A DNA stretch of 32,000 nucleotides from Nostoc punctiforme PCC 73102 (GCF_000020025.1 NC_010628.1:5550001-5582000); one strand, 5' to 3'. Positions 7,891 through 31,958 are shown, counted from the first letter of the stretch. The notes: a model not told the origin generated them from the sequence alone. Program-made: numbers and translations.

Positions 7891-10800
7891 CTAATCGCTA
7901 AGTATTCCAGCATTGTCCAGATTTGGATGTATTAGCTGCTCTACCTCGGCAGCTTTTTCACTCAAATCAAGCTCTCTGTAAATTTGCAGACTTTCAGTTA
8001 AAAACTGTATAGCAGTTGCCTCAATATCTGATTGATGATGCTCAGAGCGGCTCAGGTAGATTTCGCCCAAGAGTTTACGAGATGAAGCTTCTAGTTTCCG
8101 GCGATTATATTCTTGAAAAACTTGGAGTGATTCTTGGGCTAGTTCTTCGGCTCGCTCAATATTTTTTAATACGCTGATTTCCAGATAAGCACGAGCGATA
8201 TCAAGAGCTTCATCGGCTCGATTTAATGTTTGCCCAAGTTCGGCAAGATATGTTAAGCCAGTATTATAATATTCTTCAAATTGGGCAATTTCTTTTTGCA
8301 GTAATGAGTCGTCAAAAGATGATATGCGTATGCGTTCTGACCAAATTAAGCTAAAGATAATGTAGTCGTAAGCAAGATTTTCTTTATAGTCTCCTGTGCT
8401 ATTTATTTGAATGGCTTGAAGGATATTTTGTTCAGCTTGCGCCAGTAATTCAAAAGCTACTGCTCTATCTGAGGTATTCTTTGCTAGCAAGCGTTGATTA
8501 TCACCAATTGCTCTATGACATTTAGCTACATCCTGAGTTAAATCTAGTTGCTGGTACAAGTTGTAACTGTACTGAAAATACTCTAATGCCTGCTCATACT
8601 TATCCCAGACTCTATAAATGCGTCCTAGCCAATAATAAGCATTAGCTATTTCGGGTTGGTTATCTAGCGATTGATGTAGCAAAAGATATTGTTTTTGATA
8701 TTCAACTGCCTGTTCATATTTACCCCAATTCAGGTAGCAATAAGCTAACCAGTCCCATTGATTAGCTACATTTTTGTCTTGACCCAATTGCTCATAGAGG
8801 TCGCGGCTTTGTTGGAAATAAGTGATCGCTTTTTCATATTTTCCCCAAGTTTGATAGATGCGACCTAATTGATGGTAAGTCACAGCTATCAATGATGTGT
8901 CATTTAATGTCTGACGTATGATCAAACATTGCTGTTGACACTCTAATGCCTGTTCATATTTGCCCCAGTTGCTATAACAATCAGCTAGCCAGTACCATAA
9001 GTTAGCGACATCCTTCTCTTTGCCCAATTGCTCATAGAGATCATAGCTTTGTTGAAAATAGGCGATCGCTTGTTCATATTTGCCCCAAGCTTGATGAATC
9101 GAGCCTAGTTGAAAGTAGGCACTAGCTATACCTGCTTGGTCTTCTAACTTTTGACGTTGTGCCAAGCACTTTTGCCCACACTCCAGTGCTTGTTCATATT
9201 TATCCCATTCTCGGTAGCATCCAGCCAAGTTGTACCACTGGCTAGCTACATTCTTCTCTAAACCTAATTGCTCATAGCGTTCACGGCTTTGTTGAAAGTA
9301 GGGGATCGCTTGTTCATATTTACCCCAAGCTTGATAAATTCGACCTAGTTGATTGTAGCCATCCGCTATATTTGTTTGGTCATCCAGTTGTTGACGGCTT
9401 GCTAAATCTTTGAGTTCATATTCGACTGCCTGCTGATATTTGCCCCAATCCCGATAGCAACTAGCCAGCCGATACCATAGATCAGCTACATTCTTTTCTT
9501 TACCCAATTGCTCATAGAGGTTACGGCTTTGTTGAAAATAGGCGATTGCTTGTTTGTATTTGCCCCAAGCTTGATGAATCGAGCCTAATTGAAAGTAGGC
9601 ACTAGCTATATCTGGTTCGTCTTCTAACTTTTGATATTGTGCCAAGCACTTTTGCCCACACTCAAGTGCTTGCTCGTATTTTCCCCATTCTCGGTAGCAC
9701 CTAGCTAAGTTGTAGCACTGATTAGCTACATCCTTCTCTTTGCCCAATTGCTCATAGAGGTCACGGCTTTGTTGGAAATAGGTGATCGCTTGTTCGTATT
9801 TGCCCCATACTTGATAGATACGTCCTAACTGATGATGAGCAAGAGCTATTCTTATTTGGTCATCTATCTGTTGGCGAATTGCCAAATCCTTTTGCTCACA
9901 CTCTACGGCTTGCTGATATTTACCCCAATCACGATAGCAATCAGCTAGCCAATACAACTGGTTAGCCATATCTTTCTTTTTACCCAATTGTTCATAGAGG
10001 TCACGACTTTGTTGGAAGTAAACGATCGCTTGTTCATATTTTCCCCATGCTTGATAGATGTAGCCTAAGTGAAAATACGCCAAAGCCACTTGTGATTGGT
10101 CTTCTAACTTTTGGCAAATTTCTAAATCCTTGAGTTCGCAATGGAGTGCCTGTTCATATTTACCCCAATCGCGATAGCACCCAGCTAGGTTGTACCACTG
10201 ATTAGCCACATCTTGCTCTTTGCCCAATTGCTTATAAAGGTCATGGCTTTCTTGGTGGTAGGCGATCGCTTGTTCATATTTGCCCCACTCTTGATAAGTT
10301 CTACCTATATTCCATAAATCACTTGCTTCATCTTCTGGCTTACGAAGCTCTCTGTCTATAGCTAACGCCTGCTGGAAGCATTCTAGTGACTGCTCGTATT
10401 TGGTGTGTAAGCGATGACAAATACCTCGATTTCTCCAAAACAACAGAAAAGCAGATGGATGAATATATAAAGCTAGTTTTTCAAAGCATTCCTGATAGTA
10501 GTCAATTGCTTTATCAAATTTATCTTGTTCCTGATAACAAGTTGCAATTGACCAAGCTATGTAAGCACTGTGCCTGAAATTTGGCTGAACATCGATTTTT
10601 TCTAATAGCTCAACAGCTTTTGTATATTTATCTGTACGAATATAAGATATTGCGGTGAGTAAGTTTAATGCCCTTTGAGAGTCCTGATCGCCAACATAAT
10701 TTTCCACACTATTTTCTAAAGCAGGTGTCATTTCTTCACCTAGTTCTTTAACCAATTCTCTAAGACGACAAAATATATTAGGCTCTAGCTGATTAACAAT

Positions 10801-13338
10801 ATCAATGGTACAACTAACTAATCCTGCCCCTGCTTCACCACAAGCAACATAAAGAATAGCTGTCTGTGCTTTTACCCGTATTTCTTCAGCAAGTGTTGAG
10901 TCATTAGCAAATTCTTTCAGTCTTACCAGAACCTCACCTTTCTGGTTAAATAGTTCAATTTGGCGTAACAGCCTTAACAGTTGTTTAGTTGTATCATCCT
11001 CAAAATCTGTATCTAAAACAAGATAACTAATAACTAATTTTTGAATTAGCTTTTTGCGACGACTGCTATTTAGCTCAACTTGAGTTAAAACCTCACCAGC
11101 AAATAATAAATCTTTCAACCGTAATTCCGACTGCTTACAGTTAGTAGTTGATTCTTCTTGCAAATCTGACCAGATGATAATTGCATCCTGGGAAGATGCA
11201 TTTTTTATTTTTAACTTACCACCTTTAATTACAGGTTCATAAGCCTCAAGGTTACTGAAAAGCTGCTCAACCAGCTTATTAGCCTGTTTCGGAGAATAAA
11301 TTCCGTAATAGCCTAAAGCTAGTAGAATTGGCTCATTCCAACGCGGCTCATGCAAATGTTTACGGATAATTGCTAAAATATCGCTTACTTCATTGTCAGC
11401 AATATAACGTGCAGCAAAATACTCCTCAAACGTCAGGTGCATAAAGCCGTAGACTCCAGGCGCACGTTCCACAAATAGACCTGTGGTTTCCCGCACTTTT
11501 CGTAAAAACTCCTGCACGGCAAGCCGCACTGAGTCTGATTCTAGATTAGTATCATTTAGTTCTGCTAGTTTTGCTGCTAACTGTTGTTCAACTTCTTCCT
11601 CAGTGACTAAACCAGAGGGCTTCTCCTCATGCATCCAGTAAGCCAGTGGTGCTAAAAATGCCACTACTTCATTTTGGTTCAGCAGCACTTTCGGAGCATC
11701 TGGCAACTTCTTACCTAGCTGCCAATCTTCCGTCAAGGTTTGTACTGCCAATTCATAAAGTTTCACCCGACGGTTAGGTAGGCGTTCACCATTGCGGTGA
11801 ATCAATGCCAAAATTGTCAACAGTAAAGGGTTCGCTGTCAAGCGCTTTACACCCTCATTGTCTTTAATTGCCTCTAAAATCTTCCTTGCTTGGTCATCTC
11901 CTGCTCTTTGCCATTGTGCCTCACTAGCTTCTGGCTGCTGCGCTCGTTCTATCGCCAAACACCAGCGTTCCAAGAATTTTTCTACCTGTTCGCTACCCAT
12001 ATCTTCAACAGTGAACTCAGCAAAACGGCTGCTCAGTTTCACATCGCGGTAGCCAGCTATGCGGCTGGTAATGACAAACTTATTATTAGAGAAAGCATTC
12101 ACAAACTGATCAATTCTTTCCACAATCAGCCTGCGGCTTTCTTGTTCAAATACCTCATCTAGACCATCCAGCAGCATTAAGCACTGCCCTTGACGCATTT
12201 TTTCTAATAGTAGCGTCGCCATCTCAGTTCCCGCTTCTGCTTCATCTTGAAAGTAAGCTTCCCACTGGCGGTAGAATTGGCGCAGATAGTCCAGCAGTCT
12301 TAACTCTGGTTCTTGTTGCAGTCGTTCTGCATAATCGGCAATACGAAAGAAAATTGGCAACAGAGCTTTACCCAATTCTTCTTGGGGTTCACCACCTATT
12401 ACTATTTCATTGCCATCACGTTTCGCTGTGGCAAAATGTAGCGCTAGATAACGCAGTAACGTTGTCTTTCCCGCACCTGGAGCGCCGAGAATCACACAGT
12501 ATTGATTCTCCCGCACTGCATGAGATAAATCAATTCTCTGTGTTACTGTTTTGGTGCTAGTAGTGGGTATTGAACTTAGTAAAACTGGTTCGTAATAAGA
12601 AGGTTCGTCTAAATCGTAGGGACTAGAGATGTTCATGCTAAACCTATGTTCAGCTTTGCGAAATGTAGTCATCTCTTGGTCTAGTTTCGACGTTTCTGTA
12701 ATCTGCTGTCGCCTTACTGCTTGCAGTGAAACATAAATTTGATCCAAAAAAATATCTACTTGGCGCTGGACTTGCATCACACCGCTAATTTTGAGATAGG
12801 AATTCTCAGCTATCAACCACTCCAGATAAGGATAAAACAGAGGATTTACAGGTGGACGTGCCTCAAATTTCACTAACTTACCTCGCCAATCCCAGAAATC
12901 AGGCGCACGGTTACGAAATTCTTCTAAAAATTCCTCTTTATTTAGCCAAAAAATTATGACTAATTCCCGACCAAATAGCGAATCTCTCCCTAAATTCAAC
13001 TGCTTCATCTCTTGTTTTAGGCGTGATGTTGGCAGTTGGTCAATTCCAAACGCCATTATCAATTTGCGTTTAGTTTGAGGATTATGCAGCCCAGTTTCAT
13101 CTAAACTGTAGAGAAAGTTATACAGTGAGTTATCACTATAAAAGAAGTTCTGAGGTTCCTGAAAAGTATGATCGCTATGAGATAAAAGTAACTTGATTTC
13201 CTCGACTACCGGATGCTGTGGCCCACTCTCCGGTGCAATAGCAAAAATTGTCGTTGTTCCACTAGATAGTTCTAAGAAACTAACTAGTTTATTTAGCTCT
13301 GTTGCGTCATTTGCACTTATAGATTCGTTAGAAGCCAT
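7891..13338 (-). CDS. NACHT-family STAND NTPase with C-terminal TPR array (1815 aa, NLR-like)
   Basis: Walker A ILGAPGAGKTTLLRYLA (aa 283-299; G285 at nt 12486). Walker B CLMLLDGLDEV (aa 386-396). NACHT-typical LTANPLLLTILALIH. At least 15 repeats of 40 aa (WGKYEQAI.YFQQSRDLYEQLGKEKDVANQWYNLA.CYR). N-terminal ~160 aa are unassigned. Confidence 0.9.
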   Translation of the reverse strand: MASNESISANDATELNKLVSFLELSSGTTTIFAIAPESGPQHPVVEEIKLLLSHSDHTFQEPQNFFYSDNSLYNFLYSLDETGLHNPQTKRKLIMAFGIDQLPTSRLKQEMKQLNLGRDSLFGRELVIIFWLNKEEFLEEFRNRAPDFWDWRGKLVKFEARPPVNPLFYPYLEWLIAENSYLKISGVMQVQRQVDIFLDQIYVSLQAVRRQQITETSKLDQEMTTFRKAEHRFSMNISSPYDLDEPSYYEPVLLSSIPTTSTKTVTQRIDLSHAVRENQYCVILGAPGAGKTTLLRYLALHFATAKRDGNEIVIGGEPQEELGKALLPIFFRIADYAERLQQEPELRLLDYLRQFYRQWEAYFQDEAEAGTEMATLLLEKMRQGQCLMLLDGLDEVFEQESRRLIVERIDQFVNAFSNNKFVITSRIAGYRDVKLSSRFAEFTVEDMGSEQVEKFLERWCLAIERAQQPEASEAQWQRAGDDQARKILEAIKDNEGVKRLTANPLLLTILALIHRNGERLPNRRVKLYELAVQTLTEDWQLGKKLPDAPKVLLNQNEVVAFLAPLAYWMHEEKPSGLVTEEEVEQQLAAKLAELNDTNLESDSVRLAVQEFLRKVRETTGLFVERAPGVYGFMHLTFEEYFAARYIADNEVSDILAIIRKHLHEPRWNEPILLALGYYGIYSPKQANKLVEQLFSNLEAYEPVIKGGKLKIKNASSQDAIIIWSDLQEESTTNCKQSELRLKDLLFAGEVLTQVELNSSRRKKLIQKLVISYLVLDTDFEDDTTKQLLRLLRQIELFNQKGEVLVRLKEFANDSTLAEEIRVKAQTAILYVACGEAGAGLVSCTIDIVNQLEPNIFCRLRELVKELGEEMTPALENSVENYVGDQDSQRALNLLTAISYIRTDKYTKAVELLEKIDVQPNFRHSAYIAWSIATCYQEQDKFDKAIDYYQECFEKLALYIHPSAFLLFWRNRGICHRLHTKYEQSLECFQQALAIDRELRKPEDEASDLWNIGRTYQEWGKYEQAIAYHQESHDLYKQLGKEQDVANQWYNLAGCYRDWGKYEQALHCELKDLEICQKLEDQSQVALAYFHLGYIYQAWGKYEQAIVYFQQSRDLYEQLGKKKDMANQLYWLADCYRDWGKYQQAVECEQKDLAIRQQIDDQIRIALAHHQLGRIYQVWGKYEQAITYFQQSRDLYEQLGKEKDVANQCYNLARCYREWGKYEQALECGQKCLAQYQKLEDEPDIASAYFQLGSIHQAWGKYKQAIAYFQQSRNLYEQLGKEKNVADLWYRLASCYRDWGKYQQAVEYELKDLASRQQLDDQTNIADGYNQLGRIYQAWGKYEQAIPYFQQSRERYEQLGLEKNVASQWYNLAGCYREWDKYEQALECGQKCLAQRQKLEDQAGIASAYFQLGSIHQAWGKYEQAIAYFQQSYDLYEQLGKEKDVANLWYWLADCYSNWGKYEQALECQQQCLIIRQTLNDTSLIAVTYHQLGRIYQTWGKYEKAITYFQQSRDLYEQLGQDKNVANQWDWLAYCYLNWGKYEQAVEYQKQYLLLHQSLDNQPEIANAYYWLGRIYRVWDKYEQALEYFQYSYNLYQQLDLTQDVAKCHRAIGDNQRLLAKNTSDRAVAFELLAQAEQNILQAIQINSTGDYKENLAYDYIIFSLIWSERIRISSFDDSLLQKEIAQFEEYYNTGLTYLAELGQTLNRADEALDIARAYLEISVLKNIERAEELAQESLQVFQEYNRRKLEASSRKLLGEIYLSRSEHHQSDIEATAIQFLTESLQIYRELDLSEKAAEVEQLIHPNLDNAGILSD
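8560..10440. repeat. Intragenic tandem repeat, 120-nt unit (240-nt A/B super-repeat), encoding the 40-aa TPR units
   Basis: The c/tCCCA motif (antisense of the Trp-Gly/Asp codons of WGKY/WDKY) recurs at 8603 + 120n up to 10283. That is 15 units with no indel. Long stretches are near-identical (e.g. tgttcatatttgccccaagcttgat at 9071, 9311, 9551). Alternate units carry HIP1 or near-HIP1 (gcgatcgc). Confidence 0.95.
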
Positions 13339-13377
13339 TTTTATTGATGAATAACTGCTGATTGCAAGAGAAAAAAG

Positions 13378-14679
13378 CTATTTTTGGGGAGAGTTAGCAG
13401 CTTGCCAACGCTGTAAATCTTCTAATAGAATAGGGTTCACATCAAACCAGGATTTTTTACTGCCATTGTAATAACCTAATACAAATTTATTTTGCAAAAG
13501 CTCATCACAAATCACAAACTGACCTTTGTTAGGCAAACTATGGGTATTAGTAGTTAAACAACCTGTGCGGTGAACTTTATCTAGTTCAGGGAAATGGTAA
13601 TCGCTTAAGTTGTATTCTCTACGAACTTCTTGCACAGCCTCTTTAGCAACATCTAAGTCTACATATATCAAATCTAGCCTTAAAGAAACTTCACAAGCTG
13701 TACGAGCTAGTCGCACCAAGTCACGCATCACACCGCCACTTTTTTCCATAATTAGTTCTAGGGCATCTGGATTAAATAAACCCTTATAAGCAACACCCAA
13801 ACTTGCTAAACGCTTATTAATTACACTATTCAGAATGTCTCTACCAACTTGATTAGGGATTGTAGTAGGACATAAATTTTCATCGCACTCAAATACTGGT
13901 GGATTAGTTAAATCTAAACATTTTTGAAAGCTTTCCATTGGTTGACGAAAACTCGGAGAATACCTGAGTGAAATCGGGATCGCATATATAATATGGCAAC
14001 TTAGCTGAGTCAGCAATGGACTAGCGAACATTTCCAAAGCTGTAACTTGATCGTGTCGGTCAAGACCATCTACAATCACCAGTAACTTCTGCTTATTTCT
14101 TTTTTCGGCAGCTTCTATGATGGCGTTAACTCGCTCAATGATTTTACTAAGCTGCGGACGAATATTGTAAGTTTTAGTAACTTTTCGAGTTACACCTTGC
14201 TTAAGAATTACACCTAGTTTTTTGATAATTTCTGGAACTTCAAGACCAGTGTTTTCAGCGTCTTCATCTTGATAAACTACAGTTTTTAAACTTTCGAGTA
14301 AATCATTTAATAAATCGTCTTTTAAACCCCATTCTTGTTGAATAACTTTTTCAAAAATTTTAATTCCAATTAGTACTACAACCTCAGCATAGCCGATGTT
14401 ATATTGTTCTAGAGCAGTGACAGTATCAATCCAAATTACTGTATACTTGCTGTTCAGATTTTGTTCTAATCGCCGCAATTCTGTGGTTTTGCCACCACCT
14501 CTGTGACCTGCTAATAAAAATTTAGCTGGGTCGTCTTCCATATCCAAAAAAGTGATTAAATTCTCTACAGGACTATTAGCTCGCTGGACATAAAAATTTT
14601 TCAGGTCTTCAGCTGTAGTCAGTGGTTCCTCTGGCTTAAAAAGCTGGTAAGCAGGCTTCCAAAAACTGGTATTACTCAT
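13378..14679 (-). CDS. P-loop ATPase, ORC/Cdc6-like AAA+ (433 aa)
   Basis: Walker A LLAGHRGGGKTTELRRL. Walker B KLLVIVDGLDRHD. Lid/sensor-2-like SGGVMRDLVRLARTA. Stop is 39 nt upstream of the NACHT gene start on the same strand. Confidence 0.8.
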   Translation of the reverse strand: MSNTSFWKPAYQLFKPEEPLTTAEDLKNFYVQRANSPVENLITFLDMEDDPAKFLLAGHRGGGKTTELRRLEQNLNSKYTVIWIDTVTALEQYNIGYAEVVVLIGIKIFEKVIQQEWGLKDDLLNDLLESLKTVVYQDEDAENTGLEVPEIIKKLGVILKQGVTRKVTKTYNIRPQLSKIIERVNAIIEAAEKRNKQKLLVIVDGLDRHDQVTALEMFASPLLTQLSCHIIYAIPISLRYSPSFRQPMESFQKCLDLTNPPVFECDENLCPTTIPNQVGRDILNSVINKRLASLGVAYKGLFNPDALELIMEKSGGVMRDLVRLARTACEVSLRLDLIYVDLDVAKEAVQEVRREYNLSDYHFPELDKVHRTGCLTTNTHSLPNKGQFVICDELLQNKFVLGYYNGSKKSWFDVNPILLEDLQRWQAANSPQK

Positions 14680-14900
14680 GGTAAGAAATCTTAGTTTATC
14701 TCAGTATAACTGGGTAATTTCCCTCTGTAGATTGCTAGAAGTGAAAAACTTTATACCGTAGTCCTAAACAAGACTTTATCTTACTTTGATCGCAGATAAA
14801 TTCTTGGTGTGCGATCGCTTGTTTATATAACTTGATTAGCTGTGTAGATTTATAGACAAAAAGTTGCTTACCATTCGTCTAGCGGCTCGTTGCCAAATAT

Positions 14901-14983
14901 TGTATATGCACAAATATACAAACATTAATAATCCTTAATAGTTAATACTATTAAGGATTGTTAATATGAGCAAAAACTGCTCA
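14901..14983 (-). other. Cluster of three hairpin-forming palindromes just downstream of the RHH gene
   Basis: tgtatat-gcacaa-atataca (14901-14920). A 19-bp stem at 14924-14942/14947-14965 with one T-G pair and a 4-nt loop. tgagca-aaaac-tgctca (14967-14983). Confidence 0.6.
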
Positions 14984-14999
14984 CAAACCTGATTTTTCC

Positions 15000-15479
15000 T
15001 TAAAAATCATCGAGAAACTGACTAAGGCGACTGATTACGGGGTCAACCTCTTGAGGAGGGGTAGCAACAGTATAAGAAGTATTATTTACTACTTCTAATT
15101 GAGTTGGAGACGGAACGAACGAGCGATCGTTGACTATGAGCGCTAGTTGTGCAACTTGTTGAGAAAGTTGCAGTAGATGATGTTCCATCGCCTCCAAACG
15201 ATTAGATCCCTTGGCAAAAAAGCGTTCCTCAAGTCCAGCCACTTGACGTTGCAGTTCACCGATTTGTTGTTCAACCGGTGTTGTTGCTGCTGTTTGTGGA
15301 GCAGGTTGTACAGATTCCGGTACACATAAAGATTGCCACAAGGCTTCTTTACAGAGGTCGCTGAAAGTCTTGTCTGGTTGTTTTTCCAAATAACTTTCTA
15401 CTTGCGCTAACAAGCTTTCATCAGCAAGCTCTGGGTTGAACGTGACGGATTTAACTACCTTTTTTGACCATTGGAACAT
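15000..15479 (-). CDS. ParR-like adaptor candidate: N-terminal ribbon-helix-helix-like segment, central coiled coil, acidic/hydrophobic C-terminal tail (159 aa)
   Basis: KSVTFNPELADESLLAQVESYLEK...TFSDLCKEALWQSL fits a strand-helix-helix pattern. Heptad region IGELQRQVAGLEERF...LLQLSQQVAQLALI. Tail DPVISRLSQFLDDF. Starts 5 nt after the stop of the ParM-like gene. Confidence 0.55.
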   Translation of the reverse strand: MFQWSKKVVKSVTFNPELADESLLAQVESYLEKQPDKTFSDLCKEALWQSLCVPESVQPAPQTAATTPVEQQIGELQRQVAGLEERFFAKGSNRLEAMEHHLLQLSQQVAQLALIVNDRSFVPSPTQLEVVNNTSYTVATPPQEVDPVISRLSQFLDDF

Positions 15480-15484
15480 CAGCT

Positions 15485-16654
15485 TTATGCCCTAGCAGCG
15501 CGATTGGAGGATAATTGTGCCTCTCCATAAATATACTGCCCCAAAGCATTCGCCTGACGGGAAGGTGCTGCTAAATGAGCATTAATCTTTGCTTCTTTGA
15601 GTAGACGTTGAACGTCGTCCCAGAAGAACTCACCACCGCCACCAGTGAGAATCACATCAGTGACGCGTTCTGGCAACCAGGCTAGCACACGGCTACAGAT
15701 TTCACGCGAAAACATCTCTGTAAGGTTGGGAAGAAAATCGTCTAGGTTGGTGGGCTTGCTAGCGCCTTTAGGACGGTAATAGCGTTCACCTCTGGGTTTG
15801 TTAACGGCAGAAATCAGCGCGAGAGATTGACTATCTGCTCCCTCGATTTCGGCAGACACCAATTCATAAAACTTATTCATCCCGAAGTCTTCGCTCTTAG
15901 AAGCACCTCTGGCAAAACGGAAGTTATCTACCATCAAAAGATCGACAGTTTGATGTCCAATATCAACGATCGCTACCGATATTTTTGTAAAATCGGGACT
16001 GCTAGGACTTTTCTTCGGTTGAGCTTCAGACCACAACAGGCTACCGTAGCCTTCTGGCATTACCCATACCTTACTCACATTCAACGATATAGATTCGCCT
16101 CGGAAGTTCAATACATGAGGACCACCTACTTGGCTAATCAACTGTGCTTTTTCTTTTTCAAATTGCTCTAAAGAAAGAAAAGGCAGACCAAGTACAACTG
16201 AGATATCGTCTCTGAGTTTGAAGTAGCCAGCACTTGCTAACACTTTTACCAGTGCAGCCTCTACCTTAGATTGGCCGACTCCTAGATTCGCCCCAAAATC
16301 TGCTGCTAGTTGACCAACAGCATATCCATTTCCTTGATACTCCAGCCACAAATCCATTAAAGGGTCAGTAGCTCTGGCTTCAAAAACACCACCACGTACT
16401 TGTTCTATTGACATCTGCTTAACGTTGGCAGGTACGAATACTACACTGCCGGGTTCACGACTCACACAAGTTTTGGTGGAAGTTCTACCTAAATCAACAC
16501 TGAGAATGGTTTTCCCGGAACCACCGCCTGACTTGGTAGTAGTGGGAGGATTATTATTAACAGCATTTATGGGAGTCGTCGATGCTAACGGCTGCCTATT
16601 CATGGGTATAGCAGCACTATTCATAGGGTTAGCGGCGGAAGGTTGGTCTGTCAT
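15485..16654 (-). CDS. ParM/Alp-family actin-fold ATPase (389 aa)
   Basis: Actin-fold nucleotide motifs: phosphate-1 ILSVDLGRTSTK, phosphate-2 VAIVDIGHQTVDL, adenosine VILTGGGGEF. ParM-like YAVGQLA and VMPEGYGS. About 50 aa of low-complexity N-terminal extension (alternative starts at Met11 and Met18). Confidence 0.8.
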   Translation of the reverse strand: MTDQPSAANPMNSAAIPMNRQPLASTTPINAVNNNPPTTTKSGGGSGKTILSVDLGRTSTKTCVSREPGSVVFVPANVKQMSIEQVRGGVFEARATDPLMDLWLEYQGNGYAVGQLAADFGANLGVGQSKVEAALVKVLASAGYFKLRDDISVVLGLPFLSLEQFEKEKAQLISQVGGPHVLNFRGESISLNVSKVWVMPEGYGSLLWSEAQPKKSPSSPDFTKISVAIVDIGHQTVDLLMVDNFRFARGASKSEDFGMNKFYELVSAEIEGADSQSLALISAVNKPRGERYYRPKGASKPTNLDDFLPNLTEMFSREICSRVLAWLPERVTDVILTGGGGEFFWDDVQRLLKEAKINAHLAAPSRQANALGQYIYGEAQLSSNRAARA

Positions 16655-23059: not shown

Positions 23060-23132
23060 GCGCCTTTGGCCGATTGGGGAGGCAACGAACTCATAATTCG
23101 TCTTCAGGCTGGTTCGATTCCAGCAGGGCGCA
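23060..23132 (+). tRNA. tRNA-like gene with CAU anticodon (Met or Ile2 type), atypical geometry
   Basis: 7-bp acceptor stem (GCGCCUU/AGGGCGC, one G-U). Anticodon arm ACGAA-CUCAUAA-UUCGU. Perfect T arm GCUGG-UUCGAUU-CCAGC. But the D stem has only 3 bp and the variable loop is 6 nt (23102-23107). No encoded CCA. Confidence 0.6.
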
Positions 23133-23285
23133 CTGAATCATCAAAAAGCAGTAATAGAGGGCATGGGGCATTGGGCATGAGCAGTTGTACTGAGCATTGC
23201 TGAAGTGTTGGTTATTAATTATTGTCCTTTGCTCCCCACTACCCCTTATCCCGACAGGGGGCCCCACACTCCCCACTCGCTAATC

Positions 23286-24543: not shown

Positions 24544-24615
24544 AGCCAGCAGCGGGATTTGAACTCGCGACCTTCCGATTACAAGTCGGATGCACTACCA
24601 CTGTGCTATGCTGGC
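24544..24615 (-). tRNA. tRNA-Thr (UGU)
   Basis: Reverse complement folds as GCCAGCA-UA-GCAC-AGUGGUA-GUGC-A-UCCGA-CUUGUAA-UCGGA-AGGUC-GCGAG-UUCAAAU-CCCGC-UGCUGGC-U. There is one A-C mismatch in the T stem. Confidence 0.85.
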
Positions 24616-25928: not shown

Positions 25929-26078
25929 AAGATTTAGGAGTCATAATAGCTAGTGTGCAATTGGCTCCTAACTACTTGCTGGTAAAAAATCCGAAATAAA
26001 TGGGTAAAAGAAAAGAGAATATTCTTGCTTTTGCCTTTCATAATTTTTACTTTTCTCTTGTTATGGGGAGTTTTTTGT

Positions 26079-26092
26079 AGTACTAATGTTCT
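26079..26092 (+). promoter_or_regulatory. Cyanobacterial-type LexA box upstream of lexA
   Basis: AGTACTAATGTTCT matches RGTACNNNDGTWCB at every position. It lies 32 nt upstream of the lexA ATG. Confidence 0.75.
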
Positions 26093-26123
26093 AGAGACAT
26101 TAATAATTACTTCCCGCAAATTT

Positions 26124-26729
26124 ATGGAACGTCTAACGGAAGCTCAACAAGAACTTTACGAATGGTTGGCAGAATACATCAGAACGCACCAGCATTCGCC
26201 TTCAATTAGGCAAATGATGCAAGCTATGAACTTGAAGTCACCAGCACCAATTCAAAGTCGTTTAGAACATTTACGCACCAAAGGATATATAGAATGGACT
26301 GAAGGACAAGCGCGAACGATTCGGATTTTGCGTCCTGTTAAGCAAGGTGTACCAATTTTGGGCACGATCGCTGCTGGTGGTTTAATAGAACCGTTTACTG
26401 ATGCTGTAGATCATTTAGACTTTTCTAATTTCGATTTACCTCCCCAAACCTATGCTTTGCGGGTAGCTGGCGATAGCATGATTGAAGATTTAATTACTGA
26501 TGGCGATGTGGTATTTCTGCGTCCAGTAGCAGAACCAAATCATTTAAAAAATGGTACTATTGTTGCGGCCAGAGTTGATGGATTTGGGACGACATTAAAA
26601 CGTTTTTATCGCCAAGGCGATCGCGTTACCCTCAAACCAGCAAATCCTAAGTACAATCCCATAGAAGTCAGTGCTATGCAAGTGCAGGTGCAAGGTTCAC
26701 TGATTGGTGTTTGGCGTGGTTACAACTGA
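26124..26729 (+). CDS. lexA: LexA repressor (S24 peptidase)
   Basis: N-terminal wHTH (LTEAQQELYEWLAEYIRTHQHSPSIRQMMQAM). Ala-Gly cleavage context TIAAGGLIEP. Catalytic Ser in GDSM and Lys in LKRF. Start moved to ATG 26124; the tracked 26025 extension is hydrophobic read-through of the promoter. Confidence 0.93.
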   Translation: MERLTEAQQELYEWLAEYIRTHQHSPSIRQMMQAMNLKSPAPIQSRLEHLRTKGYIEWTEGQARTIRILRPVKQGVPILGTIAAGGLIEPFTDAVDHLDFSNFDLPPQTYALRVAGDSMIEDLITDGDVVFLRPVAEPNHLKNGTIVAARVDGFGTTLKRFYRQGDRVTLKPANPKYNPIEVSAMQVQVQGSLIGVWRGYN

Positions 26730-26807: not shown

Positions 26808-28286
26808 ATGTACCTGACGAAAAATCCAGTGCAGCAACTGCCCACTTTCCGGTTGAAATTACCGTTTGCAAGGGAAAGTAAGGGCAGTTATTACACTCCG
26901 CAACCATTACCAGGATGCCCAAGAATGCCTCCGTCTCTGCAATTGCGGCAATATCAGCGCCAAGCGATCGCTAGCTGGTTTACCAACAATGGCAGAGGGA
27001 CGTTGAAAATGGCTACTGGTAGTGGTAAAACTATTACCGCATTAGCGATCGCTTGTGAATTATATCAGCAGATTAATTTACAAGTTCTGTTAGTGGTGTG
27101 TCCCTATCGTCATCTCGTCACCCAATGGGCGAGAGAATGTGAAAAATTTAATTTGCAACCCATTTTAGCTTTCGAGAATTTACGCACTTGGCAAAGTCAA
27201 CTTTCTACGCAAATTTATAATCTGCGTTCTGGTTCTCAACGATTTGTCACTGTAATTACTACGAACTCCACATTAATTGGTGATGGGTTTCAGTCTCAAC
27301 TCAAATATTTTCCCGCTAAAACTTTAATTATTGGGGACGAGGCGCATAATTTAGGCGCACCCAAGTTAGAAGAAAGTTTACCGCGCAGTGTGGGATTGAG
27401 ACTAGCTTTATCTGCCACACCGGAAAGGTATTTTGATGATTTTGGTACGCAATCTTTATTTGATTATTTTGGCCCAGTTCTCCAGCCAGAGTTTACTTTA
27501 AGGGATGCGATCGCTCAAGGTGCTTTGGTGCATTATCTGTATTATCCGGTGTTGGTGGAGTTAACTGAAGCCGAAAGTATTGCCTATTTAAAGTTAACTA
27601 AAAGAATTGGGCGATCGCTACTTTATCGGGATAAAGAAAATGGCGAATCGGGATTTGAAGACAATGAAGATTTAAAGCCGTTGTTGATGCAAAGAGCAAG
27701 ATTAATTGGTGCGGCAGAAAATAAATTAACTGCCTTGCGGGATTTAATGGTAACTCGCCGCGAAACTAGTCACACTCTTTTTTATTGTAGTGATGGTTCC
27801 CAAGATGCGGGACAACGTTCATCTTTACGGCAACTTAAAGCTGTTGCTAAAATTTTGGGGGTGGATTTAGGCTACAAGGTAAGCACCTATACAGCCCAAA
27901 CAACTTTACAAGAACGAGAAATTTTGCGGCATCAATTTGAAAGTGGAGAGTTGCAGGGTTTAGTTGCGATTCGTTGTTTAGATGAAGGTGTTGATATTCC
28001 AGCAATTCAAACTGCGGTGATTTTATCGAGTTCTGGTAATCCTCGCCAATTTATTCAGCGACGGGGGCGAGTGTTACGTCCTCATCCTGCTAAAGAACGC
28101 GCAACAATATTCGACATGATTGTTTTACCACCAGATTTAGATAGAGAAACTATCGAAGTTGAGCGTAATTTGTTGAAAAAGGAATTGCGTCGCTTTGTAG
28201 AGTTTGCTGATTTGGCTGATAACGCTGGTGAAGCAAGAATGAAGTTACTTGATTTACAAAAGCGATATGGTTTATTAGATATTTGA
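26808..28286 (+). CDS. SF2 DEAH-box helicase (type III restriction Res / XPB-like)
   Basis: LRQYQRQAI (Q-motif-like). Motif I KMATGSGKT. Motif II IIGDEAHNL. Motif III LSATPER. Motif VI QRRGRVLRP. An alternative start at ATG 26925 (MPPSLQLRQYQ) is possible. Confidence 0.85.
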   Translation: MYLTKNPVQQLPTFRLKLPFARESKGSYYTPQPLPGCPRMPPSLQLRQYQRQAIASWFTNNGRGTLKMATGSGKTITALAIACELYQQINLQVLLVVCPYRHLVTQWARECEKFNLQPILAFENLRTWQSQLSTQIYNLRSGSQRFVTVITTNSTLIGDGFQSQLKYFPAKTLIIGDEAHNLGAPKLEESLPRSVGLRLALSATPERYFDDFGTQSLFDYFGPVLQPEFTLRDAIAQGALVHYLYYPVLVELTEAESIAYLKLTKRIGRSLLYRDKENGESGFEDNEDLKPLLMQRARLIGAAENKLTALRDLMVTRRETSHTLFYCSDGSQDAGQRSSLRQLKAVAKILGVDLGYKVSTYTAQTTLQEREILRHQFESGELQGLVAIRCLDEGVDIPAIQTAVILSSSGNPRQFIQRRGRVLRPHPAKERATIFDMIVLPPDLDRETIEVERNLLKKELRRFVEFADLADNAGEARMKLLDLQKRYGLLDI

Positions 28287-28373
28287 TGATAAGCCAAATT
28301 GTATTTTTTATAAAAATTTTCGACTTTTGAAAAAAGATGCATTAGGTATGAAATAATAAGATTATGAGTTTGG

Positions 28374-28424
28374 TCATAATGGGATGTAAGTAGCTTTAAA
28401 AATTTGACTTACATCCCATTATGA
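28374..28424 (+). terminator. Perfect 18-bp stem-loop downstream of the helicase gene
   Basis: tcataatgggatgtaagt (28374-28391) and acttacatcccattatga (28407-28424) with a 15-nt loop. No trailing T-run, so a terminator role is uncertain; it could be an operator or RNA element. Confidence 0.45.
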
Positions 28425-28587
28425 TCTAGATTAATTACAATATATATTAACAGAAAATAATTAAAGAATAAAGTGTTTTTTCAAAGAAAATTAGGATTTT
28501 AAAGATAACGCTAATAGTGAGTTTACGGAGGCTATTCTAGCACTAGAGAAAGTTAAAATGTAGAAAAACTATATTTTAAAATCCGAT

Positions 28588-28761
28588 ATGTCACAAGAGG
28601 CAAATATCGACGATGTACAAGAGCCAATAACTAGCGCACCACCGGAAGTACGGCAAATTATTGAGCGGGTATGGAAGCTGGAAAAAGGCAGGCTAGATAA
28701 GAAGATTAACAGCCATGTAAATGACAATATTTTGGACATTATTAAGGAGGAGGTGCGATGA
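28588..28761 (+). CDS. Small acidic helical protein (57 aa), not in the supplied ORF track
   Basis: ATG 28588 gives MSQEANIDDVQEPITSAPPEVRQIIERVWKLEKGRLDKKINSHVNDNILDIIKEEVR*. Its TGA overlaps the ATG of the next gene (gcgATGAag). A strong SD for the next gene (aaggaggagg) lies in its 3' end. Confidence 0.45.
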   Translation: MSQEANIDDVQEPITSAPPEVRQIIERVWKLEKGRLDKKINSHVNDNILDIIKEEVR

Positions 28762-30830
28762 AGCTGACTTCAATCAAGCTCTGCAACTTTCGCTCCTTTT
28801 ATGGTACGACACCAGAAATGATTATCGCTGGGGGAGATGCTCAGAACACGACAATCATTCATGGGAATAATGGCTCTGGAAAAACTAGCTTGCTGAATGC
28901 CTTTACGTGGGTATTGTATGATAAATTTAGTGCGGCATTTGCATCGATAGAGCAGTTAGTGAATAAGCGTGCGATCGCAGAAACCCAAAAAGGTCAAGCT
29001 GTAGAATGTTGGGTAGAGATTGGCTGGGAACACGAAGGTAAACGCTATCGAGTTAAACGCGCCTGTCGGGGTTATAAAAACGAAGGTGATTTTGACGCTG
29101 GAAAAACTCAATTAACCATGTGGGTTGGTGGAGATGATGGCAAATGGAATATACCAATTCAGCAACCAGACGATATAATTAATCAAATTTTACCCGCAAC
29201 TTTACATCAATATTTTTTCTTTGACGGCGAACGAATTGAAGAAATCGTTCGTTCTGATAAAAAAGCTGAAATTGCTGAAGCTACAAAAATTTTCTTGGGT
29301 GTGGAAGTAATCAACCGTTCCATCAGACATTTAGGAGATGCTAAAAAAACTCTAGAAAATGATTTAAAAGCTATTGGTGATTCTGAAATTAAACAGTTAT
29401 TACGACAGCAAGAAAAAATAGAGCGAGAACGCGAACGCATTACCAAACGGCAAACTGAAATTAAAGAAGAGTTAGAATATCAACAAACTTTCAAAAAAGA
29501 GACAAGTAACCGTTTGCGAGAATTGAGTGCTGCTAAAGAATTGCAAGAAAGATGGCAGGATTTAGAATCGCAAAAAGCAGCAAATCAAGAAGAATATAAA
29601 AAAACCAAGGAAGCGCTGAAAAAAGTTATTTCTGCGCGGGGTTATACAGTTTTGCTTTCAGAAACTACATCGCAGTTTCGAGGGATTATCAATGATTTGA
29701 AGCAGCGCGGTGAATTAACATCAGGAATTTCGCGGGAATTTGTGAATGATTTACTCAATTCTCAACGCTGTATATGTGGTGCAGAATTACATGAGGGTAA
29801 TCATTCTCATACTCATGTGAGTACTTGGTTAAATAAAGCCGGTTCTTCGGCGGTAGAAGAAACTGCAATTCGGATGCTAGCACAAGTAGATGAAATTGAT
29901 AAGCAAGCGATAGGATTTTGGGAAGAAGTTGATAGAGAACAAACTAGGATTAATCAATTAAGGCAAAGTATATCTCAAATTGAAGGCGATTTAGACAATA
30001 TTCAAGAACGGTTGCGAAAAGATGCTAATGAAGAAATTAGCAGTTTGCAAAAACGATTAGATGAAATTGAAAGTAAAATTGATGAATTAAATCGAGAACA
30101 GGGTGCAAATCAGCAGCAAATTGCTCAACTCACAACTGAAATTGAAGGTTTAAACAAACAAATCGCCAAACAAAAGCTGAATGAAGACAAGCAAACTTTA
30201 GCACAGCGACGAATTAACGCCACTCAAGATGCAATCGAACGGTTAACGGAAGTTAGAAATCGTCAAGAACAACAATTTCGTCTGCAACTAGAAAAGCGAG
30301 TGCAGGAGATATTCACAGAGATTTCTGTTACTCCATACATTCCTAAAATTAGTGATAAATATGAACTGACATTAGTAGAAAATACTACAGGTGTGGAAGC
30401 ACCAGTTGCAGCATCTACTGGGGAAAATCAGATTCTCAGCTTATCCTTTATTGCCAGCATCATTGACAAAGTGCGGGAATGGAGTGAGAAGCGAAAAATG
30501 ATGATGATTCCCGATAGTAGTACTTTTCCAATTGTGATGGATTCGCCGTTTGGTAGTTTAGATGAGAATTCGCGGCGACATATAGCAAAGACAATTCCCC
30601 AATTAGCGAATCAGTTGATAGTTTTAGTTACTAAGACTCAGTGGCGCGGTGAAGTGGAAGCAGAAATAACAGACAGAATTGGGAGAGAATATGTGCTTAC
30701 GTATTATTCTTCTAAACCGGATTGTGAACAAGATTATATTGAGTTGAGTGGAGAAAGATATCCTTTGGTGAAACAAAGTCCGAATGAGTTTGAGTATACA
30801 GAAATTATGGAAGTTGAACGAGATAGGTAA
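28758..30830 (+). CDS. DndD/Rad50-like ABC-type ATPase with coiled coils (690 aa)
   Basis: Walker A HGNNGSGKTSLLNAF. FFFDGERIEE. Long heptad regions (aa ~195-295 and ~385-515). Signature-like ASTGENQILSLSF. Walker B/D-loop FPIVMDSPFGSLD. Central CxC...HxxxHxHxH cluster at aa 338-353. Confidence 0.8.
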   Translation: MKLTSIKLCNFRSFYGTTPEMIIAGGDAQNTTIIHGNNGSGKTSLLNAFTWVLYDKFSAAFASIEQLVNKRAIAETQKGQAVECWVEIGWEHEGKRYRVKRACRGYKNEGDFDAGKTQLTMWVGGDDGKWNIPIQQPDDIINQILPATLHQYFFFDGERIEEIVRSDKKAEIAEATKIFLGVEVINRSIRHLGDAKKTLENDLKAIGDSEIKQLLRQQEKIERERERITKRQTEIKEELEYQQTFKKETSNRLRELSAAKELQERWQDLESQKAANQEEYKKTKEALKKVISARGYTVLLSETTSQFRGIINDLKQRGELTSGISREFVNDLLNSQRCICGAELHEGNHSHTHVSTWLNKAGSSAVEETAIRMLAQVDEIDKQAIGFWEEVDREQTRINQLRQSISQIEGDLDNIQERLRKDANEEISSLQKRLDEIESKIDELNREQGANQQQIAQLTTEIEGLNKQIAKQKLNEDKQTLAQRRINATQDAIERLTEVRNRQEQQFRLQLEKRVQEIFTEISVTPYIPKISDKYELTLVENTTGVEAPVAASTGENQILSLSFIASIIDKVREWSEKRKMMMIPDSSTFPIVMDSPFGSLDENSRRHIAKTIPQLANQLIVLVTKTQWRGEVEAEITDRIGREYVLTYYSSKPDCEQDYIELSGERYPLVKQSPNEFEYTEIMEVERDR

Positions 30831-30926
30831 TTACAGCAGTTTTGATGTCTTTGACCCACATCTGTCATAAGGAAGTAGGCGAAAATATTTTTACAGGAAT
30901 GATACAAAATACTTCTCAAATTCTTA

Positions 30927-30955
30927 TTCTCCGTGTTCTCTGTGCCTCTGTGGTT
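30927..30955. repeat. GC-rich dispersed repeat copy (left, inverted)
   Basis: ttctccgtgttctctgtgcctctgtggtt is similar to the reverse complement of 31332-31362. A related sequence occurs at 1540-1557. Confidence 0.6.
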
Positions 30956-31031
30956 TTATTTTCCGTTACCTGTACATAAATCTGATTTTAGTTACAGTTG
31001 AGAAAATTGGCTTTTGAAAAGGAATAAGATT

Positions 31032-31370
31032 ATGGTTGCGAGTCCAGACAGAAACTATATGTCCCCCCAGGAATATCTGGAATGGGAAGAACGCCAAGAA
31101 ATTAAATATGAATATATTGATGGTGAAGTTTTCGCCATGACTGGGGAGACTTTGCAAGAATACGTCCTCATCGATGCTGAAAAAATTGGTTTAGATTGTT
31201 TTCGGTTAAATGATAGAGGACTTTGGGAGTTACATCCTTATGAGGAAGGGGATGAGGTTCATTTAACTAGTGCTGATTTTCACTTTCCTATTTCTTTGGT
31301 TTATGAGGATGTTCAGTTTGTAGGAAAAACGAACCGCAGAGGCGCAGAGGACGCGGAGAGAAGAGAGTAA
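31032..31370 (+). pseudogene. Uma2 (DUF820) family nuclease with internal in-frame deletion
   Basis: The N-terminal YMSPQEYLEWEERQEIKYEYIDGEVFAMTG joins directly (near 31143-31151) to the C-terminal ETLQEYVLIDAEK...FHFPISLVYEDV. The ~85-95 aa core with the PD-(D/E)xK residues seen in the neighbouring 183-aa paralog is missing. The 3' tail (RRGAEDAERRE*) is read from a dispersed repeat. Confidence 0.65.
31332..31362. repeat. GC-rich dispersed repeat copy (right)
   Basis: aaccgcagaggcgcagaggacgcggagagaa, the inverted partner of 30927-30955. Confidence 0.6.
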
Positions 31371-31406
31371 AATTGAGATTATTACTAACTCATTAAAAGA
31401 TATTTT

Positions 31407-31958
31407 ATGAGTATTAAAACTGAAGCGACTATTGAAGATTTGTACCAATTACCAGACAATTGTAAAGCAGAGATTGTCAATGGGAAATTGGTGCTGATGT
31501 CTCCAACTGGATTTTTACCAGGACGTGCAGGTGGTGAAATTTATGCAAGTCTACGGGATTATAAACGATTGACAAAAAGTGGTTATGCTTTACCTGATAA
31601 TGTTGGTTTCATTGTCAATCTCCCTCATCATCGTTCTTTAAGTCCTGATGCGGCATTTTATACCGGCAAACCTACAGGTGGGAAGTTCCTTAATGGTGCG
31701 CCTGTGTTTGCTGCTGAGGTGAGAAGTGAAAATGATTATGGTGAGACAGCAGAGAAAGATATGGCTAGCAAACGCCGTGATTATTTTGCAGCTGGTACTT
31801 TGGTCGTTTGGGATGTGGATGTACTCAAAGAGGAAGTTATCAGAGTATACCGCGCTAGTAATCCCGAAGAAGCACAAGTGTATCGCCGTGGTGAGGTAGT
31901 GGAAGCTGAACCTGCGTTACCAGGATGGACTATGTTGGTGGATAATTTGTTTGTTTAG
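31407..31958 (+). CDS. Uma2 (DUF820) family putative endonuclease, full length (183 aa)
   Basis: Family-typical layout: KAEIVNGKLVLMSPTG, SPDAAF, PVFAAEVRS (PD...E.R/K core) and the C-terminal DYFAAGTLVVWDVD. Confidence 0.85.
   Translation: MSIKTEATIEDLYQLPDNCKAEIVNGKLVLMSPTGFLPGRAGGEIYASLRDYKRLTKSGYALPDNVGFIVNLPHHRSLSPDAAFYTGKPTGGKFLNGAPVFAAEVRSENDYGETAEKDMASKRRDYFAAGTLVVWDVDVLKEEVIRVYRASNPEEAQVYRRGEVVEAEPALPGWTMLVDNLFV

Follow-up and report, generated by a model that had tools for sequence, protein, structure and literature searches.

How does a NACHT protein signal when no effector is fused to it, and what is a second ATPase gene doing beside it? The question is raised by two adjacent genes in a 32,000-nucleotide stretch of Nostoc punctiforme PCC 73102 (NC_010628.1, 5550001–5582000; hereafter the window, with positions counted from its first letter). 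Gene A encodes a P-loop NTPase of 433 amino acids (aa), and gene B encodes an 1,815-aa protein with a NACHT domain and an array of tetratricopeptide repeats (TPRs). Bacterial proteins resembling nucleotide-binding leucine-rich-repeat receptors (NLRs) are commonly interpreted as single chains that combine a sensor, a switch and a fused effector. The A–B module departs systematically from this plan: the effector position is taken by what appears to be a dead AAA+-like domain (the N-domain), and a separate ATPase adjoins it, across many sensor types and a wide range of GC content. With a probability of about one half, we read the locus as the NACHT-containing cyanobacterial branch of a broad module made of A and the N-domain, in which the partner ATPase acts as output or co-factor of an NLR-like conflict system. 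A first-pass annotation, made from the sequence alone, had proposed two coupled ATPases in an NLR without a classical effector. That proposal was largely right, and a sharper description is an ATPase paired with a pseudo-ATPase head that recurs across sensor types.

The pairing of A with B exceeds chance by far, as it is found repeatedly in cyanobacterial orders and outside them. A genome scan yielded 80 loci with A homologues (A identity 52–96%) in Nostocales, Coleofasciculaceae, Moorena, Symploca, Microcoleus, Pseudanabaena and Leptolyngbya-like lineages. At nearly all loci with enough downstream DNA, a B homologue lies directly 3′ of A on the same strand, and all four non-repeat segments of B align at 41–98% across the genome loci. 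There are four exceptions. At two loci (L051 and L054) the order is reversed, B preceding A; an orphan A (L052) occurs in a metagenome-assembled genome (MAG) that holds a complete pair elsewhere; and in a Mastigocoleus MAG (L036, 10001–11338) A is split into open reading frames (ORFs) of 196 and 244 aa and B is absent, which looks like a decayed copy of the module. The gap between the two genes ranges from −26 to about 50 nucleotides (nt) across many lineages, with 39–42 nt in Nostoc and overlaps or a few nucleotides elsewhere, including gaps of −1 or −4 nt in some lineages. The expectation that A and B form a conserved unit was therefore borne out. No third conserved gene emerged, either from all-against-all clustering of neighbours at the 80 genome loci or at the 51 metagenome pair loci described below. 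The genes fcmB and fcmC accompany A–B at only 19 loci, where Nostoc, Stigonema, Calothrix and Dulcicalothrix all retain the order fcmBC, A, B, PGM-family gene; outside that clade the context is not conserved.

The first-pass annotation had also suggested that co-occurrence and co-variation be examined, and the two genes do both. Across 54 pairs, the divergence of A correlates with that of the N-domain (r = 0.92), the NACHT domain (0.89) and the middle region of B (0.88). In partial Mantel tests, which are liberal, the correlation of A with the N-domain given NACHT is 0.62, and the reverse, A with NACHT given the N-domain, is 0.33. This pattern is consistent with co-evolution of A and the N-domain. 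One locus stands apart: in Calothrix sp. MO_167.B12 (L068, 10001–18227) A is only 56% identical to the A protein of the window, compared with about 73% in other Nostocales, and the B segments stand at 61–70%; this A seems to have diverged unusually fast or to have been replaced.

What, then, occupies the place of the effector? The first-pass annotation read no catalytic motif in the N terminus of B, and Pfam indeed finds nothing in residues 1–280, even at E ≤ 10. The region is not empty, however, as it holds a conserved AAA+-like domain of about 160 residues. Residues 1–162 are strongly conserved around the signatures MAFGIxQL, LNLGR[DE], FWLN and APDFWDWRG, which in B read MAFGIDQL (94–102), LNLGRD (114–119), IIFWLN (128–133) and APDFWDWRG (145–153). 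The AlphaFold2 model of this domain (pLDDT 79.8, pTM 0.78) was compared with the Protein Data Bank (PDB) using Foldseek, which returned an AAA+ α/β core (TMq 0.5–0.64, E about 1e-5 to 1e-4), with Aeropyrum ORC2, NSF, the inactive Escherichia coli clamp-loader subunit δ and Rif2 as the top folds. A Walker A motif or P-loop is present in 0 of 64 orthologues. Because an AAA+-like fold is combined with the lack of Walker A in 64 of 64 orthologues, the N-domain is, on the evidence of the model, a pseudo-ATPase-like AAA+ domain. Four N-terminal fragments of B orthologues (P0124, P0129, P0132 and P0134) carry the NCBI name ‘histidine kinase, partial’, which their domain content does not support.

The N-domain also proved to be the constant part of a much wider family. 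A search of 1.84 billion representative proteins with an N-domain profile gave 186 hits, 17 of them at the level of orthologues and about 160 distant, and the domain is invariably N-terminal. In the 70 distant proteins that were scanned we found TPR_12 (38 proteins), NACHT (20), nSTAND3 (11), AAA_16 (11) and HEAT repeats (11). Metagenome contigs were sampled solely by the back-translated N-domain signature APDFWSWR, and 52 of the 65 N-domain ORFs recovered have an A-type ATPase immediately upstream on the same strand. Upstream sequence is shorter than 320 nt for 10 of the 13 exceptions, which leaves about 55 testable genes, 52 of them paired. The partners are full-length (about 430 aa; A-profile E values of 1e-9 to 1e-41) and the median gap is −1 nt, with many overlaps of the ATGA type. 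The GC content of these loci spans 33–65%, so the module is not confined to one lineage. We define the module as an N-terminal N-domain (APDFW[DS]WR) with an A-type ATPase immediately upstream on the same strand, which is also the arrangement found in the window.

Most of the downstream N-domain proteins sampled are 250–740 aa long, too short for a NACHT domain, and the short ones that were scanned have none. The first-pass annotation had coupled A to the NACHT protein, and A does stand next to B, but its invariant partner is the N-domain. What follows that domain differs from relative to relative: TPRs only (L110 and L180); TPR, NB-ARC and TPR (L189); a weak NACHT-like match below the Pfam cutoff (L136); or TPR and FGE-sulfatase (L164). 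In Nostoc sp. ATCC 53789, plasmid pNsp_c carries a paralogous A that is followed by an 1,844-aa protein with the N-domain and WD40 repeats (14 matched stretches). The same strain holds a 95% orthologue of the window pair on a 7.3-Mb contig, and several paralogous modules coexist within it. In two proteins (P0234 and P0266) the N-domain is joined to a complete A-type ATPase. The invariant unit is A-type ATPase plus N-domain, and the NACHT–TPR body of B is therefore one of several interchangeable back ends. That the pairing of A with the N-domain is conserved we regard as very likely. A third candidate fusion, P0158 (metagenome, 749 aa), was discarded as a chimeric or deleted A/B fragment: it runs from the last third of A through the C-terminal part of the N-domain and NACHT to the C-terminal end of B, and is probably a mis-assembly or a deletion derivative.

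The partner A belongs to a broad class of AAA+/STAND/KAP-type NTPases with a lid. It had been called ORC/Cdc6-like; the broad P-loop class holds, and the specific label finds no support in Pfam, NCBIfam, PDB or Foldseek comparisons. Instead, A passes the Pfam model KAP_NTPase (PF07693; 35.4 bits against a cutoff of 20, residues 39–218) and is borderline, below the Pfam cutoff, for nSTAND5 and AAA_16. Against the NCBIfam Sll1717 family (NF047389, cutoff 75) it scores 27.9 bits, and one relative scores 32.6. There is no ORC/Cdc6 family among its Pfam and NCBIfam matches and no sequence match in the PDB, and the Foldseek matches (RuvBL, ORC, the Apaf-1-like Dark and RdrA) are weak and generic, with a TM-score of about 0.2 from a model with a pLDDT of 57. 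We found 259 homologues of A, every named host of which is cyanobacterial, the closest being in Nostoc spp. (95% identity). The Walker A pattern G..G.GK[ST] is present in 63 of 64 cyanobacterial orthologues and also in the full-length metagenome homologues; Walker B reads DGLDR/K in 62 of 64 orthologues and DDLDK in the wider family, across which SGGxxRE[LF] in the lid is likewise kept. Judged by the retention of GHRGxGKT and DGLDR, A looks active.

The AlphaFold2 model of A, of low confidence (pLDDT 57 overall and below 50 in the C-terminal region), has a P-loop core in which a long insert separates Walker A from Walker B, followed by a helical lid and a C-terminal α/β region that may be a winged-helix-like domain. 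Transmembrane helices inserted in the P-loop domain are reportedly a hallmark of the KAP family, as attributed to Aravind and colleagues in 2004. We found no convincing transmembrane helix in A; the top-scoring 19-residue segment, IGYAEVVVLIGIKIFEKVI, reaches a Kyte–Doolittle value of only 1.62 and has charged residues within it, and A was rejected as a membrane-inserted classical KAP protein. In PADLOC, A matches only PDC-S20, at 21.6 bits.

B is a NACHT and TPR protein as the first-pass annotation described it, and the motifs quoted there for the two proteins (GHRGGGKTT, LLVIVDGLDRH, SGGVMRDLVRLARTA, GAPGAGKTT and LMLLDGLDEV) are all present. With a Pfam NACHT match above the cutoff, both Walker motifs intact and a C-terminal repeat sensor, B has the features of a NACHT STAND protein, and the retention of GxPGAGKTT, DGLDE and TSR in orthologues suggests that its NACHT domain is active. 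The middle region that contains YGFMHLTFEEYFAA may correspond to a NACHT-type winged helix. The TPR array includes 15 exactly phased units of 40 aa (8512–10311), and its DNA forms super-repeats of 240/480 nt with 73–78% identity (8702–10307; Tandem Repeats Finder). Among Nostoc strains whose A proteins are 91–96% identical, the number of TPR units ranges from 14 to 23. Within the conserved unit type, variation peaks at helix-A positions 2, 3, 5, 9 and 13 (1.8–2.7 bits) and is far lower at most other positions; these five positions presumably line the ligand-binding groove. Five Logan contigs that carry the exact A protein (L001–L005) all break within the TPR array and truncate B at 1,203 or 1,575 aa. 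B lengths in draft genomes are unreliable because the 240/480-nt repeat defeats short-read assembly.

Table 1. Position of the A–B pair, its domains and motifs and the adjoining signals within the window.
Feature	Position	Strand	Residues	Description
Gene A	13378–14679	−	1–433	433-aa P-loop NTPase: nucleotide-binding domain (NBD), helical lid, C-terminal α/β region; the constant partner of the module
A, Walker A	14482–14508	−	58–66	GHRGGGKTT; sequence motif
A, Walker B	14053–14085	−	199–209	LLVIVDGLDRH; STAND-style hhhhDGLD, with Arg in place of the Glu of NACHT
A, lid motif	13696–13740	−	314–328	SGGVMRDLVRLARTA; sensor-2-like or GxP-like position
A, C-terminal α/β region	13381–13662	−	340–433	Conserved W[FY]D[VL][HN]P[IL] motif
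A–B spacer	13339–13377	−		39 nt; terminator-like hairpin absent (consensus scan)
Gene B	7891–13338	−	1–1815	1,815 aa: N-domain, NACHT, helical middle region, TPR array, C-terminal helical region
B, N-domain	12853–13338	−	1–162	AAA+-like α/β core without Walker A
B, NACHT NTPase	11962–12501	−	280–459	Pfam PF05729, 38.3 bits against a cutoff of 26.7
B, NACHT Walker A	12460–12486	−	285–293	GAPGAGKTT; conserved in 63 of 64 orthologues
B, NACHT Walker B	12151–12180	−	387–396	LMLLDGLDEV; conserved in 64 of 64 orthologues
B, NACHT sensor 1	12061–12078	−		FVITSR; conserved in 56 of 64 orthologues
B, middle helical region	10567–11961	−	460–924	No Pfam family; 41–93% identity in orthologues
B, segment in middle region	11410–11451	−		YGFMHLTFEEYFAA
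B, TPR array	8503–10566	−	925–1612	Pfam TPR_12, 336 bits
B, C-terminal helical region	7894–8502	−	1613–1815	Non-repetitive; tblastn 44–83% identity across loci
Promoter candidate 5′ of A	14703–14731	−		Sigma-70-like; consensus scan, 9 of 12 matches
Hairpin directly 3′ of fcmC	14930–14959	−		13 bp; consensus scan

Neither protein matches a named defence system in PADLOC or NCBIfam, in agreement with the first-pass annotation. For B, PADLOC returns only generic TPR, P-loop and candidate-model fragments (PDC-S39, mad8 and PtuA, at most 57 bits), and the NCBIfam model of the NACHT anti-phage protein EruA gives 48.6 bits against a cutoff of 1,000. Relatives of the pair also gave no named system in either database; a PADLOC match to PifA reached only 16 bits, on one relative.

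A link to conflict systems comes from plasmid p057_J of Nostoc sp. C057 (L206, 5105–10278), on which the vWA component of a VMAP–MoxR–vWA system continues in frame into an A module of 85% identity. The vWA component is recognized by SAV_2336_NTERM (539 bits), MoxR and a VMAP-M1/VMAP-C protein precede it, and no N-domain protein follows. The fusion is one 974-aa protein in RefSeq; the source record for P0014 gives a 426-aa A alone. The A module sits at the vWA component's C terminus, in what is described as a variable effector slot of conflict systems that holds 86 different domains, including STAND NTPases (PMC7159879). Through this fusion the A module joins the network of conflict systems that share modules, which falls short of proving A to be a terminal toxin. 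For A–B, a role in conflict or immunity is somewhat more likely than not. The genes for MoxR, vWA and VMAP are all absent from the window.

What comes after the N-domain we read as a swappable sensor or scaffold, at this locus a functional-looking NACHT domain and a TPR array that varies in copy number and surface. The pairing of the genes, their domains and intact motifs, the N-domain fold, the fusions and the variable repeats rest on observation; the contact of A with the N-domain, the course of the signal and the role in the cell are inferred. We hypothesize that the array would bind a protein or peptide ligand, upon which ATP-dependent oligomerization of NACHT would cluster the N-domains. 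Each N-domain would then dock on A as a pseudo-protomer, in the manner of the inactive δ and δ′ subunits of the clamp loader, or of inactive ORC subunits, with their active counterparts. The ATPase of A would thereby be assembled or activated, and would do the work of the effector (nuclease, TIR or protease) that is fused in classical bacterial NLRs. The module would belong to the NLR-like conflict systems, serving immunity or allorecognition, that are enriched in multicellular bacteria. Docking of the N-domain with A as the output is a tentative proposal. More speculative still is its generalization, NLR-type receptor signalling through a dedicated partner ATPase that is recruited by a pseudo-ATPase head, as a prokaryotic counterpart of sensor/helper NLR pairs. 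The short members of the family would then amount to a ‘split STAND’, with switch (A) and repeat sensor (N-domain and TPRs) on different chains and a dead NBD-like domain as the link; lacking an NTPase of their own, they would have A as their sole switch. The A-type ATPase would be an immune executor of a new kind, or else a hetero-oligomeric switch with a composite active site for which the pseudo-protomer is required.

Several observations weigh against this mechanism. The pair of Nostocales sits at a fixed housekeeping locus where A is about as conserved as the PGM-family gene and fcmB (in Calothrix HK-06 the identities are 75% for A, 80% for the PGM-family gene and 78% for fcmB), which is unusual for defence genes. 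Copies of the module in phage genomes were not found, and PADLOC gave no hit for A–B above generic fragments. No toxic activity is evident in A, so its casting as the output is an argument by elimination, and the slot that it occupies in the vWA fusion also hosts non-terminal signalling NTPases (PMC7159879). Profile–profile comparison of the N-domain with A (hhalign) gave a probability of 2.9%, which is not significant and leaves the N-domain unsupported as a detectable sequence homologue of the NBD of A; the sole aligned stretch puts the GLExL strand of the N-domain on Walker B of A and PIVLWL on its sensor-1 strand. The model of A is poor (pLDDT 57), which makes both its fold class and the nature of its C-terminal region uncertain. 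Changes in repeat copy number can arise by unequal crossing-over without selection, and the liberality of the partial Mantel tests tempers the co-variation of A with the N-domain.

A cellular regulatory role stays a live alternative because of the fixed housekeeping locus, the conservation of A and the lack of phage copies, PADLOC hits and toxic activity. A and B would then be a housekeeping or developmental STAND signalling pair, an ATP-dependent switch comparable to MalT or AfsR, that serves the filamentous lifestyle, its TPRs providing a platform for partners in the cell. Every named host of the orthologous pair is cyanobacterial, and we take most of the host genera to be filamentous; the retention of the gene order from fcmBC to the PGM-family gene in four genera, the conservation of A on a par with the adjoining housekeeping genes, the housekeeping flanks and the want of a toxin-type effector or PADLOC match all suit such a role. 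However, fcmBC is transcribed from start sites of its own, is followed by a hairpin and accompanies the pair at only the 19 loci noted above, beyond which the context dissolves. Plasmid copies and paralogues exist, one of them inside a VMAP–MoxR–vWA conflict system, with several paralogous modules per genome; relatives exchange their sensor modules (FGE-sulfatase, WD40, NB-ARC); near-identical strains differ in the number of TPR copies and in helix-A residues; and neither A nor B has a recognizable DNA-binding output domain. We consider this alternative unlikely, if still worth serious attention. Chance adjacency of two unrelated genes, by comparison, is refuted by the comparative data and retains a negligible probability: the genes stay adjacent in different cyanobacterial orders and outside them, their stop and start codons often overlapping, fusion proteins exist, and the divergence of A and B is correlated.

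The coupling between A and the N-domain could also run in the opposite direction, since pairing and fusions show that the two are coupled and not which acts on which. A would be a chaperone or licensing ATPase that loads, resets or unfolds the N-domain, as MoxR does with vWA, and the output would be B itself, through higher-order TPR or NACHT assemblies, or a factor encoded elsewhere. Most of the sampled members are short, and those scanned consist of the N-domain and TPRs without an NTPase of their own, so A is their only motor. Chaperone-type AAA+ thresholding is the published logic of the related ternary systems (PMC7159879), which this reading would match, and the ‘ATPase-licensed NLR’ of the first-pass annotation agrees with it. 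Yet the TPR arrays and the N-domain show no recognizable catalytic or pore-forming feature, and A lacks classical unfoldase AAA+ features as far as its weak model shows. The C057 plasmid fusion, which has A and no downstream N-domain protein, implies that A can be deployed alone as a module. A reversed direction seems rather improbable to us. Far less probable is a pair of the amyloid-motif (BASS-type) effector–NLR kind, or of the homotypic-adaptor (EAD or Death-like) kind, in which a shared short motif or adaptor passes the signal. The gene order does match published pairs of filamentous bacteria, with the partner upstream and, downstream, an NLR with a non-catalytic N-terminal region (bioRxiv 10.1101/2020.01.06.895854). 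But BLASTP of A against B residues 1–280 finds nothing (best E = 1.3), and the C terminus of A and the N terminus of B share 3 four-residue words where 2.0 ± 1.4 are expected (63 pairs). The N terminus of B is a globular α/β domain of 160 aa rather than a 20-aa motif, and there is no copy of the N-domain within A. Pairing through a common motif is largely refuted by these results.

How does the preferred reading, with A as the output or co-factor of an N-domain receptor, relate to systems already described? In a search of the literature, which was non-exhaustive, we found no description of the A plus N-domain module. By analogy, the closest published concept is the two-gene nSTAND2 operon (Kaur et al. 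2021), in which a hetero-multimer is predicted between an active STAND-type NTPase and an eroded, inactive one, the latter bearing variable fused domains (PMC8195603). Here, too, adjacent genes encode an active module (A, with intact Walker motifs) and an eroded one (the N-domain, P-loop-less in 64 of 64 orthologues). The comparison draws on the published description rather than on sequence, and there are differences: in nSTAND2 each partner is a complete STAND module, with GT4 or HEPN effectors on the inactive one (PMC8195603), whereas the inactive module here is a 160-aa core fused to sensors (TPR, NACHT–TPR, FGE-sulfatase or WD40), and no GT4 or HEPN domain was found in B or in the relatives scanned. 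With the bNACHT and Avs proteins B shares a central NACHT nucleotide-binding oligomerization domain (NOD) whose Walker A and B motifs are intact, as well as a repeat sensor at the C terminus, and the hosts of A–B belong to the cyanobacteria, which have more NACHT paralogues than any other phylum (Kibby et al.; bioRxiv 10.1101/2022.07.19.500537). B differs from them in lacking the enzymatic effector that classical bacterial NLRs and Avs proteins have fused N-terminally to the NOD, with the P-loop-less AAA+-like N-domain in its place, and no model for Avs1–4 or for other named PADLOC systems matches at full length.

The VMAP–MoxR–vWA systems (PMC7159879) resemble the module in their enrichment in multicellular bacteria, in AAA+ thresholding and in variable sensor or effector modules (TPR, FGE-sulfatase (FGS) and STAND NTPases); the A–B module is binary, however, and MoxR, vWA and VMAP occur together only at the plasmid homologue of strain C057. 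Like the KAP NTPases (PF07693; PifA of the F plasmid), A scores above the Pfam cutoff and its Walker A and B motifs are separated by a long insert, but one without convincing transmembrane helices. The inactive AAA+ subunits of the clamp loader (δ and δ′), ORC and Rif2 types share with the N-domain its fold, the lack of a nucleotide-binding loop and an active ATPase partner; there is no sequence homology, the likeness is structural and conceptual only, and ring formation or a trans-acting arginine finger is unsupported. The TPR array recalls the fungal NLRs (Dyrka et al. 2014, PMC4986451) in its long, exactly phased and highly similar repeats, of which the copy number and a few positions vary. 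It differs in its bacterial host and its 40-aa unit.

Should A prove to be either the output or an obligatory co-switch, the module would represent a new signalling logic for prokaryotic STAND systems and would offer a handle on hundreds of gene pairs that now stand unannotated as ‘TPR protein’ and ‘P-loop NTPase fold protein’. It would also provide a simple bacterial model for sensor/helper NLR cooperation and for the control of active subunits by pseudo-ATPases. NACHT–TPR genes without an effector should not be filed too readily as incomplete or decayed.

At the locus itself, the first-pass annotation correctly placed the two ORFs on the minus strand, 39 nt apart and with no terminator-like hairpin between them. 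Promoter-like sites near A are no more frequent than in shuffled sequence, so the candidate in Table 1 is weak evidence. The pair directly abuts fcmB and fcmC (15000–16654, minus strand; NCBIfam 732 and 237 bits), an actin-like system of filament morphology. In Nostoc punctiforme, fcmBC has been described as a two-gene operon with transcription start sites upstream of fcmB (PMC12645912), and the hairpin that follows fcmC is likely to mark the boundary between that operon and A–B. Because fcmBC has its own start sites and is followed by this hairpin, A–B looks like a separate unit; together with linkage at so few loci, this makes a functional operon of A–B with fcmBC unlikely. The flanks are ordinary chromosome, with glnB, rdgB, a PGM-family mutase, fcmB and fcmC, a DedA/UptA-like gene, a GFO/IDH oxidoreductase, queC and a CNNM transporter. 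GC content is 35–37% over gene A and its upstream spacer (13001–15000), compared with 41–46% in the flanking housekeeping genes and 38–43% in B; the low value over A may reflect compositional heterogeneity or the trace of an older acquisition.

Elsewhere in the window there are two tRNA genes, for tRNA-Met (CAT; 23060–23133, plus strand) and tRNA-Thr (TGT; 24544–24615, minus strand), and no other Rfam family reaches the gathering score in it. The gene lexA lies at 26025–26729, and the plus-strand genes just 3′ of it (26808–31958) may form a small defence-like cluster: an SF2 helicase (ResIII/Helicase_C, 492 aa, 26808–28286), an SMC-like ATPase (AAA_23/AAA_15, 690 aa, 28758–30830) and, at the end, two ORFs for Uma2-family endonucleases (31014–31370 and 31407–31958).

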